A stretch of DNA of 8,174 nucleotides from Naegleria gruberi. Lineage: Eukaryota. Under the pieces are notes generated by a model, which did not search any database, was not told where the DNA came from, and saw nothing but the letters and a program-made list of their open reading frames with translations. Positions 912 to 8,174 of this stretch are shown piece after piece; position 1 is the stretch's first letter; every line of letters begins with the position of its first letter. The translations under genes and the position numbers were made by a program. Location: NCBI GenBank assembly GCA_000004985.1, contig GG739084.1. The stretch is one strand, 5' to 3'.

Positions 912-1002
912 AATAGAATGTTGTTGGAACAAAAAACAAAAAAATATCTTGATCATCAACCCACAAAAATACTTCGTCGCCTGATGCTAGTAATTTTTTT
1001 AA

Positions 1003-1111
1003 ATGTCAACGAATAACAATAACAACAACAATAGAACCCGAAGCTCCACAAGCTTCTCCTCTCCATCAAATGCTCAAGGAGGGTTTGGAGCGTTTTTAAA
1101 ATCATTCATGG
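1003..1111 (+). CDS. 5' end of a protein-coding gene cut off by the assembly gap. The visible N-terminus is poly-Asn and Ser-rich, followed by GGFGAFLKSFM.
   Basis: The ATG at 1003 has an A at -3 (ttaaATGt). The 36 codons before the N-run read MSTNNNNNNNRTRSSTSFSSPSNAQGGFGAFLKSFM. The Asn run uses mixed AAT/AAC codons, so it is not a pure microsatellite. The open frame beyond 1111 is just N translation. Confidence 0.35.
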
Positions 1112-4100
1112 NNNNNNNNNNNNNNNNNNNNNNNNNNNNNNNNNNNNNNNNNNNNNNNNNNNNNNNNNNNNNNNNNNNNNNNNNNNNNNNNNNNNNNNNN
1201 NNNNNNNNNNNNNNNNNNNNNNNNNNNNNNNNNNNNNNNNNNNNNNNNNNNNNNNNNNNNNNNNNNNNNNNNNNNNNNNNNNNNNNNNNNNNNNNNNNNN
1301 NNNNNNNNNNNNNNNNNNNNNNNNNNNNNNNNNNNNNNNNNNNNNNNNNNNNNNNNNNNNNNNNNNNNNNNNNNNNNNNNNNNNNNNNNNNNNNNNNNNN
1401 NNNNNNNNNNNNNNNNNNNNNNNNNNNNNNNNNNNNNNNNNNNNNNNNNNNNNNNNNNNNNNNNNNNNNNNNNNNNNNNNNNNNNNNNNNNNNNNNNNNN
1501 NNNNNNNNNNNNNNNNNNNNNNNNNNNNNNNNNNNNNNNNNNNNNNNNNNNNNNNNNNNNNNNNNNNNNNNNNNNNNNNNNNNNNNNNNNNNNNNNNNNN
1601 NNNNNNNNNNNNNNNNNNNNNNNNNNNNNNNNNNNNNNNNNNNNNNNNNNNNNNNNNNNNNNNNNNNNNNNNNNNNNNNNNNNNNNNNNNNNNNNNNNNN
1701 NNNNNNNNNNNNNNNNNNNNNNNNNNNNNNNNNNNNNNNNNNNNNNNNNNNNNNNNNNNNNNNNNNNNNNNNNNNNNNNNNNNNNNNNNNNNNNNNNNNN
1801 NNNNNNNNNNNNNNNNNNNNNNNNNNNNNNNNNNNNNNNNNNNNNNNNNNNNNNNNNNNNNNNNNNNNNNNNNNNNNNNNNNNNNNNNNNNNNNNNNNNN
1901 NNNNNNNNNNNNNNNNNNNNNNNNNNNNNNNNNNNNNNNNNNNNNNNNNNNNNNNNNNNNNNNNNNNNNNNNNNNNNNNNNNNNNNNNNNNNNNNNNNNN
2001 NNNNNNNNNNNNNNNNNNNNNNNNNNNNNNNNNNNNNNNNNNNNNNNNNNNNNNNNNNNNNNNNNNNNNNNNNNNNNNNNNNNNNNNNNNNNNNNNNNNN
2101 NNNNNNNNNNNNNNNNNNNNNNNNNNNNNNNNNNNNNNNNNNNNNNNNNNNNNNNNNNNNNNNNNNNNNNNNNNNNNNNNNNNNNNNNNNNNNNNNNNNN
2201 NNNNNNNNNNNNNNNNNNNNNNNNNNNNNNNNNNNNNNNNNNNNNNNNNNNNNNNNNNNNNNNNNNNNNNNNNNNNNNNNNNNNNNNNNNNNNNNNNNNN
2301 NNNNNNNNNNNNNNNNNNNNNNNNNNNNNNNNNNNNNNNNNNNNNNNNNNNNNNNNNNNNNNNNNNNNNNNNNNNNNNNNNNNNNNNNNNNNNNNNNNNN
2401 NNNNNNNNNNNNNNNNNNNNNNNNNNNNNNNNNNNNNNNNNNNNNNNNNNNNNNNNNNNNNNNNNNNNNNNNNNNNNNNNNNNNNNNNNNNNNNNNNNNN
2501 NNNNNNNNNNNNNNNNNNNNNNNNNNNNNNNNNNNNNNNNNNNNNNNNNNNNNNNNNNNNNNNNNNNNNNNNNNNNNNNNNNNNNNNNNNNNNNNNNNNN
2601 NNNNNNNNNNNNNNNNNNNNNNNNNNNNNNNNNNNNNNNNNNNNNNNNNNNNNNNNNNNNNNNNNNNNNNNNNNNNNNNNNNNNNNNNNNNNNNNNNNNN
2701 NNNNNNNNNNNNNNNNNNNNNNNNNNNNNNNNNNNNNNNNNNNNNNNNNNNNNNNNNNNNNNNNNNNNNNNNNNNNNNNNNNNNNNNNNNNNNNNNNNNN
2801 NNNNNNNNNNNNNNNNNNNNNNNNNNNNNNNNNNNNNNNNNNNNNNNNNNNNNNNNNNNNNNNNNNNNNNNNNNNNNNNNNNNNNNNNNNNNNNNNNNNN
2901 NNNNNNNNNNNNNNNNNNNNNNNNNNNNNNNNNNNNNNNNNNNNNNNNNNNNNNNNNNNNNNNNNNNNNNNNNNNNNNNNNNNNNNNNNNNNNNNNNNNN
3001 NNNNNNNNNNNNNNNNNNNNNNNNNNNNNNNNNNNNNNNNNNNNNNNNNNNNNNNNNNNNNNNNNNNNNNNNNNNNNNNNNNNNNNNNNNNNNNNNNNNN
3101 NNNNNNNNNNNNNNNNNNNNNNNNNNNNNNNNNNNNNNNNNNNNNNNNNNNNNNNNNNNNNNNNNNNNNNNNNNNNNNNNNNNNNNNNNNNNNNNNNNNN
3201 NNNNNNNNNNNNNNNNNNNNNNNNNNNNNNNNNNNNNNNNNNNNNNNNNNNNNNNNNNNNNNNNNNNNNNNNNNNNNNNNNNNNNNNNNNNNNNNNNNNN
3301 NNNNNNNNNNNNNNNNNNNNNNNNNNNNNNNNNNNNNNNNNNNNNNNNNNNNNNNNNNNNNNNNNNNNNNNNNNNNNNNNNNNNNNNNNNNNNNNNNNNN
3401 NNNNNNNNNNNNNNNNNNNNNNNNNNNNNNNNNNNNNNNNNNNNNNNNNNNNNNNNNNNNNNNNNNNNNNNNNNNNNNNNNNNNNNNNNNNNNNNNNNNN
3501 NNNNNNNNNNNNNNNNNNNNNNNNNNNNNNNNNNNNNNNNNNNNNNNNNNNNNNNNNNNNNNNNNNNNNNNNNNNNNNNNNNNNNNNNNNNNNNNNNNNN
3601 NNNNNNNNNNNNNNNNNNNNNNNNNNNNNNNNNNNNNNNNNNNNNNNNNNNNNNNNNNNNNNNNNNNNNNNNNNNNNNNNNNNNNNNNNNNNNNNNNNNN
3701 NNNNNNNNNNNNNNNNNNNNNNNNNNNNNNNNNNNNNNNNNNNNNNNNNNNNNNNNNNNNNNNNNNNNNNNNNNNNNNNNNNNNNNNNNNNNNNNNNNNN
3801 NNNNNNNNNNNNNNNNNNNNNNNNNNNNNNNNNNNNNNNNNNNNNNNNNNNNNNNNNNNNNNNNNNNNNNNNNNNNNNNNNNNNNNNNNNNNNNNNNNNN
3901 NNNNNNNNNNNNNNNNNNNNNNNNNNNNNNNNNNNNNNNNNNNNNNNNNNNNNNNNNNNNNNNNNNNNNNNNNNNNNNNNNNNNNNNNNNNNNNNNNNNN
4001 NNNNNNNNNNNNNNNNNNNNNNNNNNNNNNNNNNNNNNNNNNNNNNNNNNNNNNNNNNNNNNNNNNNNNNNNNNNNNNNNNNNNNNNNNNNNNNNNNNNN

Positions 4101-6284
4101 NNNNNNNNNNNNNNNNNNNNNNNNNNNNNNNNNNNNNNNNNNNNNNNNNNNNNNNNNNNNNNNNNNNNNNNNNNNNNNNNNNNNNNNNNNNNNNNNNNNN
4201 NNNNNNNNNNNNNNNNNNNNNNNNNNNNNNNNNNNNNNNNNNNNNNNNNNNNNNNNNNNNNNNNNNNNNNNNNNNNNNNNNNNNNNNNNNNNNNNNNNNN
4301 NNNNNNNNNNNNNNNNNNNNNNNNNNNNNNNNNNNNNNNNNNNNNNNNNNNNNNNNNNNNNNNNNNNNNNNNNNNNNNNNNNNNNNNNNNNNNNNNNNNN
4401 NNNNNNNNNNNNNNNNNNNNNNNNNNNNNNNNNNNNNNNNNNNNNNNNNNNNNNNNNNNNNNNNNNNNNNNNNNNNNNNNNNNNNNNNNNNNNNNNNNNN
4501 NNNNNNNNNNNNNNNNNNNNNNNNNNNNNNNNNNNNNNNNNNNNNNNNNNNNNNNNNNNNNNNNNNNNNNNNNNNNNNNNNNNNNNNNNNNNNNNNNNNN
4601 NNNNNNNNNNNNNNNNNNNNNNNNNNNNNNNNNNNNNNNNNNNNNNNNNNNNNNNNNNNNNNNNNNNNNNNNNNNNNNNNNNNNNNNNNNNNNNNNNNNN
4701 NNNNNNNNNNNNNNNNNNNNNNNNNNNNNNNNNNNNNNNNNNNNNNNNNNNNNNNNNNNNNNNNNNNNNNNNNNNNNNNNNNNNNNNNNNNNNNNNNNNN
4801 NNNNNNNNNNNNNNNNNNNNNNNNNNNNNNNNNNNNNNNNNNNNNNNNNNNNNNNNNNNNNNNNNNNNNNNNNNNNNNNNNNNNNNNNNNNNNNNNNNNN
4901 NNNNNNNNNNNNNNNNNNNNNNNNNNNNNNNNNNNNNNNNNNNNNNNNNNNNNNNNNNNNNNNNNNNNNNNNNNNNNNNNNNNNNNNNNNNNNNNNNNNN
5001 NNNNNNNNNNNNNNNNNNNNNNNNNNNNNNNNNNNNNNNNNNNNNNNNNNNNNNNNNNNNNNNNNNNNNNNNNNNNNNNNNNNNNNNNNNNNNNNNNNNN
5101 NNNNNNNNNNNNNNNNNNNNNNNNNNNNNNNNNNNNNNNNNNNNNNNNNNNNNNNNNNNNNNNNNNNNNNNNNNNNNNNNNNNNNNNNNNNNNNNNNNNN
5201 NNNNNNNNNNNNNNNNNNNNNNNNNNNNNNNNNNNNNNNNNNNNNNNNNNNNNNNNNNNNNNNNNNNNNNNNNNNNNNNNNNNNNNNNNNNNNNNNNNNN
5301 NNNNNNNNNNNNNNNNNNNNNNNNNNNNNNNNNNNNNNNNNNNNNNNNNNNNNNNNNNNNNNNNNNNNNNNNNNNNNNNNNNNNNNNNNNNNNNNNNNNN
5401 NNNNNNNNNNNNNNNNNNNNNNNNNNNNNNNNNNNNNNNNNNNNNNNNNNNNNNNNNNNNNNNNNNNNNNNNNNNNNNNNNNNNNNNNNNNNNNNNNNNN
5501 NNNNNNNNNNNNNNNNNNNNNNNNNNNNNNNNNNNNNNNNNNNNNNNNNNNNNNNNNNNNNNNNNNNNNNNNNNNNNNNNNNNNNNNNNNNNNNNNNNNN
5601 NNNNNNNNNNNNNNNNNNNNNNNNNNNNNNNNNNNNNNNNNNNNNNNNNNNNNNNNNNNNNNNNNNNNNNNNNNNNNNNNNNNNNNNNNNNNNNNNNNNN
5701 NNNNNNNNNNNNNNNNNNNNNNNNNNNNNNNNNNNNNNNNNNNNNNNNNNNNNNNNNNNNNNNNNNNNNNNNNNNNNNNNNNNNNNNNNNNNNNNNNNNN
5801 NNNNNNNNNNNNNNNNNNNNNNNNNNNNNNNNNNNNNNNNNNNNNNNNNNNNNNNNNNNNNNNNNNNNNNNNNNNNNNNNNNNNNNNNNNNNNNNNNNNN
5901 NNNNNNNNNNNNNNNNNNNNNNNNNNNNNNNNNNNNNNNNNNNNNNNNNNNNNNNNNNNNNNNNNNNNNNNNNNNNNNNNNNNNNNNNNNNNNNNNNNNN
6001 NNNNNNNNNNNNNNNNNNNNNNNNNNNNNNNNNNNNNNNNNNNNNNNNNNNNNNNNNNNNNNNNNNNNNNNNNNNNNNNNNNNNNNNNNNNNNNNNNNNN
6101 NNNNNNNNNNNNNNNNNNNNNNNNNNNNNNNNNNNNNNNNNNNNNNNNNNNNNNNNNNNNNNNNNNNNNNNNNNNNNNNNNNNNNNNNNNNNNNNNNNNN
6201 NNNNNNNNNNNNNNNNNNNNNNNNNNNNNNNNNNNNNNNNNNNNNNNNNNNNNNNNNNNNNNNNNNNNNNNNNNNNNNNNNNNN
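1112..6284. other. Assembly or scaffold gap of 5,173 consecutive N.
   Basis: Read directly from the sequence. Every ORF shown as crossing this region (1003-6294 +, 1074-8060 -, 1106-6289 -) is continuous only because N translates to X. The true gap length is unknown. Confidence 0.97.
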
Positions 6285-7898
6285 GCCAATATGATTAAAT
6301 ATTTCCAAAAAGTAATGACAAATCATATAAACCTCAATAGCTCTTAACTTATTCATTGTTTTTCCGTTTGTGATTTTTCTTGGGTGTTTATGAAGGAATG
6401 AAGGATATTTTTGTNTGAGGAATATTTTGTCAAATTTTTCCCAATAACTTTCTGGAATTAAGGACATGAAATCTTGAAATAATCCTTCATACAGAACATG
6501 CATAGAATCGTAACAACATATAATTGATGGATTAGGATTCCAATCTTGTTTCAAAATTGGTGAAATTCCTTTCATTCCTTCATAATCTTTCTTACTCATG
6601 TTTTCTTCCCAATATTCTAAACTTCTCAACTCATTTAAATTATATTTTTTTAGAAATTTGTCATAATTTAAAGGGTATCTTGTTTGTTTTGTTGTTTCAC
6701 TAACCTTACTTGTTACCCCTTTTTGTCTACATATATGACAAAAGTACGTTCCACTTTGTTTAAATAATAATACTTCAGATCTGGCGGGAAGATCACAGAC
6801 AATTCTTTCTAATCTTATTTTTACAGAATTATGTGAATTGTAATGATTTAAATCATCCATCAAAATGTTCAACAATAATTGTACTTCCTTCAAATCAGGT
6901 TTTTTTGGAGCAAGAATCCAAAGAAAATTATTCGAACGCTTTCTCCTTAAATGTGGTTTCATTTCATTGAAATTGAAAGATCCTTGATAAAAAGCATTGG
7001 TGCTATTGTTAAATGGGCAAACTGAATCAAAAAATGCAGATATTGTTTTAAGCTTTCCTTCATTAAACAGTTTTTTGTGATGTTGTTGATAAACCGATCC
7101 ATGAACTCTATCTGAAACAATTTCATCCTTAATATCTTCCACTTTTTCAAAAAATTGATTATTAAAATCTTTTTCAAAGAAAATTCTTTCATCCAATTGA
7201 AATTTTAGTGGTCTCAAGAAACAATATGAGTGATTCTTCCATTCTATTTCACAATTACATTTTTTTACATTTTTGTTTCTTTCATATTCTCCACATTTTG
7301 TACAATAATGCACCATAATTGTTTTTCTACTGATATAAAAATAATCATAAAATCCTTTCAACGTGAAATAATATGAATCTTTTTCAGAAATAGAATTAAA
7401 ATCTTGAAGTGTTTCTTTAAATAATTCCAAAACAGATTCCAAACTTGATTCAGACAGTTTTGCTTTAACAGCAAACCTTAATAGTTTCCTCATTATTTTT
7501 TCCAACTTGATATCCGTTACAATTCTTTCCACGCTTTGGAATGAATGATTGCTCAATAAATCATTCTCTCCATATTTTGATGATTCATGACTATAAAAAT
7601 TTTTAAGAAACTCATATTCTTCTTGATTCTCTTGATTTTCAAATTCTCTTGATTCATCAGATTCTTCCATATCAACTTCATTGAAACAGGAACAGCTCTG
7701 TGCTTCATAACCTCCAATTTCTTGACAAAATACCTCCACTCTATCATCATTTCTGACAGGATTATCTTTTAAAACAAAATCAGTTTCAGAATTTTTCTGA
7801 GTACTGTTTGATTGACAGAGTTTCTTACTTGCTCCTCTTAACGCATCAAACTGATACGATCTTTTCATTGTTTTTTGAATGGAGTTGGAGAAAATCAT
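6285..7898 (-). CDS. TNP2-like DDE transposase of the CACTA/En-Spm or KDZ-type (CMC superfamily). This is the N-terminal ~538 aa, and the 3' end is lost in the gap.
   Basis: A single minus-strand frame is open across all resolved sequence from 6285 to 8060 (592 codons, no stop) in AT-rich DNA. The most plausible start is the ATG at 7898 (MIFSNSIQKTMKRSYQ..., A at -3). The ATG at 7868 is an alternative. Motifs run in the canonical TNP2 order: HYCTKCGEYERNKNVKKCNCEIEW (~7235-7310, cf. CPKCGESRY zinc finger); FDSVCPFNNS (cf. DGFNPF); FLWILAPKKPDL (~6895-6945, cf. LIPGPKSP); LLLNILMDDL (cf. YLQPLIDEL); CDLPARSEVLLFKQSGTYFCHIC (~6718-6810, cf. NDFPAYGNLSGWSTKGxxACPVC); CCYDSMHVLYEGL (~6481-6520, cf. 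LDVMHIEKN). The family assignment rests on my recall of these motifs and was not searched against any database. Confidence 0.7.
6285..7898 (-). mobile_element. Minimum visible extent of a DNA transposon of the CACTA/KDZ class. The termini were not identified, and the element most likely continues into the N-gap and perhaps rightward.
   Basis: The only basis is the presence of the transposase gene. No TIRs (CACTA...TAGTG) or target-site duplication can be seen in the resolved sequence. The adjacent 5.2-kb gap fits a repeated element. Confidence 0.4.
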
Positions 7899-7928
7899 GT
7901 TTTCAACCTTGATTGAGTTTGATAGGAG

Positions 7929-7966
7929 GTTTACAATTTTTTGTAAACTTTTTGTAAACTTTTGTA
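7929..7966. promoter_or_regulatory. Candidate cis-element cluster in the divergent intergenic region. The palindrome GTTTACAA-tttt-TTGTAAAC sits at 7929-7948, followed by a second direct TTTTTGTAAAC at 7949-7959 and a partial TTTTGTA at 7960-7966.
   Basis: Read directly from the sequence. It lies 31-70 bp upstream of the transposase ATG (7898, minus strand) and 55-92 bp upstream of the plus-strand ATG at 8021. The GTAAAC core resembles the forkhead-type consensus GTAAACA. It could also be a transposase-binding subterminal-type repeat. Confidence 0.25.
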
Positions 7967-8020
7967 TGACATACTGGGCCAATAAAGATTGTATCCATAC
8001 AAAAATTTTAAAAAACCAAA

Positions 8021-8167
8021 ATGAAAAGAAAAAGTTCTTCAAAAGTCTCATCTTCTTCAAAATCTCCTTCCAAGAAATCGAAAGATAGCGAGGAAACTAA
8101 GGAATCAACAGATCAATCCTTATATAAAAAGAAAAGGTTATCCAAAAAACAAGTGAATACTATTTAA
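8021..8167 (+). CDS. Short Lys/Ser-rich basic ORF of 48 aa. It may be a complete small ORF or the first exon of a gene continuing beyond the window.
   Basis: ATG at 8021 and TAA at 8165-8167. Translation: MKRKSSSKVSSSSKSPSKKSKDSEETKESTDQSLYKKKRLSKKQVNTI. It is transcribed divergently from the transposase. It is absent from the supplied ORF track, presumably because it falls below the length cut-off. A donor-like CAA|GTGAAT sits at 8150-8158. The basic low-complexity composition can also arise by chance in A-rich DNA. Confidence 0.2.
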   Translation: MKRKSSSKVSSSSKSPSKKSKDSEETKESTDQSLYKKKRLSKKQVNTI

Positions 8168-8174
8168 CCTATAA

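Follow-up and report, generated by a model that had tools for sequence, protein, structure and literature searches.

Which kind of gene lies in the AT-rich stretch of contig GG739084.1 of Naegleria gruberi where a long minus-strand open reading frame (ORF) runs into an assembly gap, and does that gene belong to a mobile element? An initial annotation of this window (the whole stretch analysed, 8,174 bp) described the frame as a truncated transposase of either TNP2-like (CACTA/En-Spm) or KDZ type. The analysis reported here indicates that it is very probably a CMC-type (TNP2-like) transposase gene, a reading carried by homology, conserved catalytic columns and fold, together with the element structure and very recent mobility of its relatives in N. 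lovaniensis.

An uninterrupted frame split by public gene models

Read on the minus strand from 7898 to 6285, the frame comprises 538 codons and, as first reported, no internal stop, with a single X due to the lone n at 6415; at the local G+C content of 28.5% the chance of meeting no stop across 538 codons is about 6e-23. The motif series that had attracted attention is present in the translation, complete and in the order given: CTKCGEY...CNCEIEW (amino acids (aa) 199-220), FDSVCPF (290-296), LAPKKPDL (329-336), LNILMDDL (343-350), CDLPA...GTYFCHIC (368-390) and DSMHV (464-468). The frame then enters a run of N at 1112-6284 (5,173 nt), and the gene had been regarded as truncated there, with about half of a protein of 800-1200 aa visible. 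Two N. gruberi 'predicted proteins' from one and the same 712,659-bp scaffold, P0001 and P0004, are 99% identical to the window protein. P0001 (XP_002682167.1, NAEGRDRAFT_46017) spans aa 1-335, to which a spurious 'FDG' is appended, and the P0004 model starts at Met434, matches the last 105 visible residues with 100% identity and goes on for another 207 aa to a stop; the two are halves of one uninterrupted ORF that the public annotation splits, and the lone n at 6415 belongs to a Lys codon (AAA) in P0004. The frame does enter the gap, as had been stated; however, since P0004 runs on past the boundary of the N run, the gene is hidden in the window and not truncated in the genome, and the sequence under the N run is present in public data. 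Because P0004 continues 207 aa beyond the visible part, the full transposase is about 745 aa long, of which about 72% is visible, so that the earlier size estimate has to be abandoned. The N. lovaniensis homologue P0002, with 751 aa, agrees with this length. Judging from its alignment with the start of relatives, Met11 (7868) may be the true start.

Homology to CMC transposases

The relationship was obtained by an exhaustive hmmsearch, in which a profile of five Naegleria sequences was compared with 1.84 billion representatives and gave 995 matches at E<=1e-3 and 241 at E<=1e-10; among the matches listed, the distant full-length ones mostly align over about profile positions 65-630. Proteins carrying PF02992 (Transposase_21) or PF06869 (DUF1258) above gathering were reached with E values from 1e-27 to 1e-19. 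Ten profile matches were scanned with Pfam; in the nine that are distant, Transposase_21 (tnp2) and/or DUF1258 exceed the curated cut-offs. Additionally, each of these two models was found in 24 of 26 distant relatives (E<=0.001), and the KDZ and DUF1280 models in 0/26 at the same threshold. The comparison by hhalign of a Naegleria-only alignment with a non-Naegleria alignment gave a probability of 100% and E=1.1e-45 over 485 aligned columns. As the window protein has no direct Pfam match of its own, the link to Transposase_21 is transitive, running through intermediate relatives. Homologue searches based on a word index yielded hardly anything but Naegleria proteins, even when a 30-sequence alignment was used. 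At E<=1 P0002 has no Transposase_21 or KDZ match, no Naegleria member scanned with Pfam matches DUF1258 directly, and DUF1280 is absent from all Pfam scans made (window protein, P0002, the ten matches and the 26 relatives). The first half of the original alternative, TNP2, is thus borne out through profile and hhalign similarity, whereas for the second, KDZ, no model match appeared anywhere scanned.

Conserved residues and predicted fold

Column conservation was read from a 30-sequence family alignment (A3), where counts refer to the sequences covering each column. The motifs first pointed out do fall on conserved columns, namely C199, C202, C214 and C216, D291, D369, C387 and C390, and D464, M466 and H467 (counts in Table 1). 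The four first-named cysteines make up a Cys4 zinc ribbon that precedes the catalytic core, is probably part of the DNA-binding N-terminal region and shows only weak zinc-ribbon similarities in Pfam and the PDB. D291 and D369 are predicted to be the first two catalytic Asp because hhalign pairs their blocks with the Asp blocks of Transposase_21/DUF1258 proteins: FFDSVCPF with 'WNTDGV.FKSS', and CDLPARS…SGTYFCHIC with 'CDLPAKS…NG.YGC..C'. The C(2)C motif that follows the second Asp is a zinc ligand pair described as a signature of the EnSpm/Mirage/Chapaev/Transib/RAG1 clade (PMC12730594). DSMHV, a motif conserved in the insertion domain, was considered as the site of the third catalytic residue and rejected, an invariant Glu being found about 170 residues downstream, after N.H...H and GPL. 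This Glu lies in AFIGE of P0004 (column invariant in 28/28), at a position under the N run in the window, and for the downstream N, H, G, P, F and E columns the count of conserved over covering sequences is 27-28/28-29. Within H(3)H, the first His belongs to an invariant column, and the second position (column 920 of A3) is His in 24/24 non-Naegleria sequences.

In the predicted model the first core strand (283-293) ends with D291, and the fourth (360-367) is closely followed by D369, a placement that, as modelled, is canonical for an RNase H-like core. In fold comparison with the window protein's own model RAG1, RAG1-like (RAGL) proteins and Transib come first, the figures being 14.2 for RAG1 (366 residues aligned), 13.4 for the Amphioxus RAG1-like protein (BbRAGL), 10.3 for the P element transposase, 9.2 for Transib and 7.3 for Hermes. 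Transib and RAG1/RAG1-like proteins (structures 6dbi, 6cij, 4wwx, 6b40 and 6pqn) have the closest fold, although sequence identity to them is just 7-12% and there is no sequence-level PDB match; PDB sequences searched with phmmer and by profile hmmsearch gave nothing relevant, only weak zinc-ribbon/RING noise. Unlike RAG1, the Naegleria family has no RAG2-like partner, and Transib differs further in its target-site duplication (TSD) of 5 bp, the upper end of the 2-5 bp range of the clade, compared with 2 bp in the Naegleria family.

Mobile relatives in Naegleria

In N. lovaniensis an identical 751-aa protein is encoded on three contigs with unrelated gene neighbourhoods, and the three loci (L001-L003) share a block of 5,866-5,893 bp in which only 3 substitutions and 3 indels, one of them 26 bp long, distinguish the copies. 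Since the copies are near-identical their mobility is very recent, and the family is active now or was so very recently in this species. The recent activity suggested by the initial annotation for the window copy is thereby borne out for relatives in N. lovaniensis only. The element ends, 5'-CCCGCTACTCGCGG… and …CCATGAGAAGCGGG-3', form an imperfect inverted repeat of about 14 bp and are flanked by 2-bp duplications (AA, TG and GA). CCCGC…GCGGG ends recur, together with a GA duplication, in L005 (4544-11413), which represents a second subfamily of N. lovaniensis, and an element on a contig of another assembly (L004) starts with CCCGC, so that ends of the CCCGC…GCGGG type occur in three subfamilies or species of relatives. 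The probability that four flank dinucleotides match by chance is about 1.5e-5. A TSD of 3 or 5 bp was also considered, as the flanks of L001 share AACAA, and was rejected, as the other three insertions agree on 2 bp only. Degenerate copies occur as well: the transposase gene is split in L005 and internally deleted in L004. A further copy, in inverted orientation, is represented by 38 bp of its end at the beginning of the L003 contig. L005 also carries, at 937-3621 and about 1 kb upstream of its element, a tyrosine recombinase gene with a Phage_integrase Pfam domain, which may be a DIRS/Crypton-type element and is unrelated to the transposase family.

Other N. gruberi members are found on other scaffolds, among them P0007 (37% identical to the window copy) and P0015 (61-78%). 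P0008, P0165 and P0166 form one cluster of at least 90% identity on three scaffolds; P0008 and P0166 are 99.3% identical over 138 aa, and each is 56-58% identical to the window copy. Viral contigs were scanned for relatives that would point to a giant-virus link, and none was found. From the sequences compared, the transposon family appears so far to be known only from Naegleria and a few environmental contigs.

The mobile elements also carry a second gene, ORF2, which in L001, L004 and L005 stands head-to-head with the transposase gene across spacers of 116-174 bp. It encodes about 410-510 aa, is present once per element and has no Pfam family and no PDB sequence match, only weak coiled-coil/bZIP-like and SH3-like noise. 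In the window a candidate start of ORF2 stands head-to-head with the transposase ATG at a distance of 122 bp, so that the internal layout of the element is preserved in the N. gruberi copy. This stretch encodes a Ser/Lys-rich basic N-terminus whose alignment with the ORF2 N-termini is weak and of low complexity (33% identity), and it probably represents the first codons of the element's ORF2. GTGAAT at 8153 is a possible 5' splice site at which an ORF2 intron would start, the window ending at 8174. The divergent intergenic region is presumed to be a bidirectional promoter; it contains a tandem TTTGTAAACTTT direct repeat at about 7935-7965, which could be a promoter or binding element. On the other side, by analogy with relatives in which the distance from stop codon to element end is 107 bp (L001) or 189 bp (L005), the element end is predicted about 100-190 bp beyond the transposase stop codon, under the N run.

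Place among known families

The gene and its relatives share with the CMC/CMCT clade the profile similarity, the two catalytic Asp, the Glu (in P0004) and the C(2)C motif. The TSDs of that clade are of 2-5 bp (PMC12730594), and the four N. lovaniensis insertions (AA, TG, GA and GA) agree with so short a length. Automatic classification has already recorded the kind in the genus: 38 'CMC-EnSpm' RepeatMasker hits, 69,762 bp in total, have been tabulated for the N. lovaniensis genome (PMC6125883).

Within the clade, the EnSpm/CACTA TnpD/TNP2 transposases (PF02992) share with the Naegleria family the order of zinc ribbon, D(G)..F, PxKP, CDLPA..G.Y.C..C, D.MH...G, N.H...H and GPL...F.E, the C(2)C after the second Asp and short TSDs. 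Subterminal hexamer clusters in L001 also resemble the TnpA-binding subterminal repeats of En/Spm: TTRACG/CGYAA hexamers (GCGTTAA, GCGTCAA) cluster in both orientations at 6498-6730 and 12230-12363, that is, 8 of the 10 TTRACG sites lie within the first 230 bp of the element and a cluster is also found in its last 130 bp. TnpA and TnpD of En/Spm arise by alternative splicing of one transcript, whereas the Naegleria family has two head-to-head ORFs. On the other hand, EnSpm/CACTA elements end in CACTA...TAGTG, compared with CCCGC...GCGGG in the relatives, have His, where Naegleria has Asp/Glu, as the second residue of H(3-4)H, and show the direct PF02992 match that the window protein lacks; EnSpm families also have a 3-bp TSD (PMC12730594), compared with 2 bp here. 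CACTA in the strict sense, one of the types originally named, was therefore rejected on the CCCGC ends and 2-bp TSD of the relatives and the lack of Transposase_21 above gathering.

Mirage (PF06869, DUF1258; nematodes and other animals) resembles the family in that 24/26 distant relatives match DUF1258, although direct DUF1258 matches are lacking in the Naegleria members. The TSD of Mirage in Repbase descriptions is 2 bp, as in the Naegleria family, and this TSD together with the DUF1258 matches of the intermediate relatives hints at a Mirage-like position. Of the Pfam models, DUF1258 has been taken to stand for the Mirage group and DUF1280 for Chapaev, and a clustering of Transposase_21 with the transposases of CACTA (En/Spm) has been reported (PMC3985635). 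Chapaev, characterized by DUF1280, CAC...GTG termini and a TSD of 3-4 bp (PMC3985635, PMC4079192), was rejected as well, DUF1280 being absent from the scans and termini and TSD being different. By description the family can be likened to CNEST and CNIRT6 of Cryptococcus neoformans, also divergent CMC transposases, although their hosts are fungal; these active CMC elements were missed by Repbase-style searches and recognised through their DDE/Cys/His columns (bioRxiv 10.1101/2025.05.19.654958).

Objections and alternative readings

Several observations weigh against the assignment to CMC. A direct match of the window protein to Transposase_21, Transposase_23, Transposase_24 or KDZ, by which the initial annotation had proposed to confirm its call, is absent even at E<=10, as is one to DUF1258; the sole Pfam match at that threshold, Polysacc_syn_2C, is meaningless. 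The best direct Pfam match in the Naegleria clade, that of the tenth profile match, the close N. gruberi paralogue P0007, is sub-threshold (Transposase_21, E=0.006, 16.2 bits, cutoff 28.6). The two structure models are of moderate confidence, with a mean predicted local distance difference test (pLDDT) score of 59.7 and 57.7. At the second H(3)H position the four covering Naegleria-clade sequences (P0004, P0002, P0005 and P0007) all have Asp/Glu; NFHIVSDL of P0004, whose position in the window is covered by the N run, is such an H(3)D variant. Asp and Glu are also able to ligate metal. In the clade an H(3-4)H motif precedes the catalytic E, and termini are 5'-CA..TG-3' 'in most cases', which makes them usual and not universal (PMC12730594); those of the relatives are CCCGC...GCGGG. 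The window copy itself departs from well conserved residues at G292S, beside the first catalytic Asp, and at D266H, its ORF2 stops after 47 codons, and both predicted ends of the N. gruberi element lie under the N run or beyond 8174, so that the window shows neither.

The last of these points bear on the alternative that survives best, namely that the gene is a host-domesticated or immobile CMC derivative whose ORF is intact but whose N. gruberi copy has ceased to be part of a mobile element. The changes at 292 and 266 are unique to this copy, the early end of the putative ORF2 would fit with it, and the window subfamily is represented by one copy only among N. gruberi proteins, the other members being 37-78% identical. 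However, the head-to-head ORF2 start is found at the same distance as in the mobile N. lovaniensis elements, the visible catalytic and zinc-ligand columns are all intact, mobility of the family is demonstrated in N. lovaniensis, the sister species, and the single copy is weak evidence because repeats are often collapsed or unannotated in draft assemblies. Domestication is considered unlikely, and the N. gruberi copy may sit in a complete element.

A KDZ-type (Kyakuja/Dileera/Zisupton) transposase can be put aside with near certainty. KDZ proteins are also large eukaryotic DDE-type transposases with Cys-rich regions, and the resemblance is of this general kind, but their model is matched by neither the window protein (E<=10) nor P0002 (E<=1) nor any of the 26 distant relatives (E<=0.001), which instead match Transposase_21/DUF1258. 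The fold of the window protein is moreover closest to RAG1/Transib, the TSD of Zisupton is 8 bp (PMC12730594) compared with 2 bp in the Naegleria family, and KDZ has been described as completely distinct from CMC (bioRxiv 10.1101/2025.05.19.654958). A chance resemblance of motifs in an unrelated Naegleria-specific protein, which the lack of direct Pfam and PDB sequence matches might suggest, is hardly credible in view of profile and hhalign E values of 1e-27 to 1e-45 over about 500 columns, the conserved D/D/C(2)C/H/E columns, the RAG1-like fold and a multi-copy element with terminal inverted repeats and TSDs.

Feature coordinates and neighbourhood

The features of the window and the N. lovaniensis copies are collected in Table 1. 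The plus-strand ORFs within positions 1-1111 are probably host genes, located about 4.4 kb past the predicted element end; those at 99-407 and 471-911 have no Pfam family. Rfam and tRNA scans of the window gave nothing.

Table 1. Positions in the window unless a locus is named; fractions give conserved over covering sequences in alignment A3.
Feature	Coordinates	Strand	Basis or remark
Visible transposase ORF, codons 1-538	6285..7898	-	Open frame; 99% identity to P0001/P0004; CMC/TNP2 homology
Transposase start ATG	7898	-	Start in public model XP_002682167.1
Cys4 zinc ribbon C199, C202, C214, C216 (CTKC...CNC)	7251..7304	-	Conserved in 26-28/27-28
D291 codon (FFDSVCPF), predicted first catalytic Asp	7026..7028	-	Column invariant 28/28
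D369 codon (CDLPA), predicted second catalytic Asp	6792..6794	-	Column invariant 29/29
C(2)C motif C387-H-I-C390, after second Asp	6729..6740	-	Columns invariant 29/29
DSMHVLYEG motif (D464, M466, H467, G472)	6483..6509	-	Conserved in 29-30/30
Last 207 codons and stop, inferred under the N run	5661..6284	-	P0004 continuation
Motifs inferred in the hidden part: NFHIVSDL (H(3)D at the H(3)H position), YGPLAHNSAFIGE (with the third catalytic Glu), C-terminal small beta-barrel			
Divergent intergenic region, 122 bp, transposase ATG to ORF2 ATG	7899..8020	.	Read directly
Candidate ORF2, first 47 codons	8021..8163	+	Position and orientation as in N. lovaniensis elements; TAA 8164-8166
Three plus-strand ORFs	99-407; 471-911; 1003 onward	+	Third: MSTNNNNNNNRTRSS…, poly-Asn, enters N run
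N. lovaniensis element copies	L001 6498-12363; L002 6497-12389; L003 6498-12389		

A model of transposition

The predicted protein consists of five parts: a disordered acidic N-terminus, a helical domain, the Cys4 zinc ribbon, the RNase H-like core and a small C-terminal beta-barrel. By analogy with related transposons, and supposing that the N. gruberi copy sits in a complete element, the transposase would bind the short imperfect terminal inverted repeats of its element (CCCGC...GCGGG in relatives), Mg2+-dependent cleavage would excise the element, and reinsertion at a 2-bp staggered cut would generate 2-bp target-site duplications such as those seen in the relatives. More speculatively, ORF2 might encode an accessory DNA-binding protein that acts on the subterminal TTRACG/CGYAA hexamers in the way TnpA does in En/Spm.

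Significance

At the level of annotation, several other N. gruberi 'predicted proteins' are fragments of the same transposase family, and the family can now be called CMC-type instead of being listed as unknown. As the Pfam models miss it, it would escape domain-based transposon screens. The near-identical N. lovaniensis copies mark an active or very recently active transposon in a genus with few genetic tools, and studies that trace the CMC/Transib/RAG1 family gain a distant taxon, a CMC lineage of Heterolobosea whose zinc site is altered. Neither of these two biological points would surprise a transposon specialist, the element being an ordinary cut-and-paste DNA transposon of the known CMC group.

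A further reading, offered tentatively and with somewhat less than an even chance of being right, is that the elements of Naegleria constitute a lineage of their own, restricted to Heterolobosea, placed within CMC or beside it and active now in N. lovaniensis. Its marks would be the CCCGC...GCGGG ends, the 2-bp TSDs, a zinc site of RAG1/Transib type in its H(3)D/E variant, a KOW/Tudor-like barrel at the C-terminus and a divergent accessory ORF that may read the TTRACG hexamers. If such a lineage exists, its transposon would be a candidate tool, native to the genus, for genetic work in Naegleria, and the lineage would serve as a deep-branching point of reference in the radiation of CMC, Transib and RAG1.

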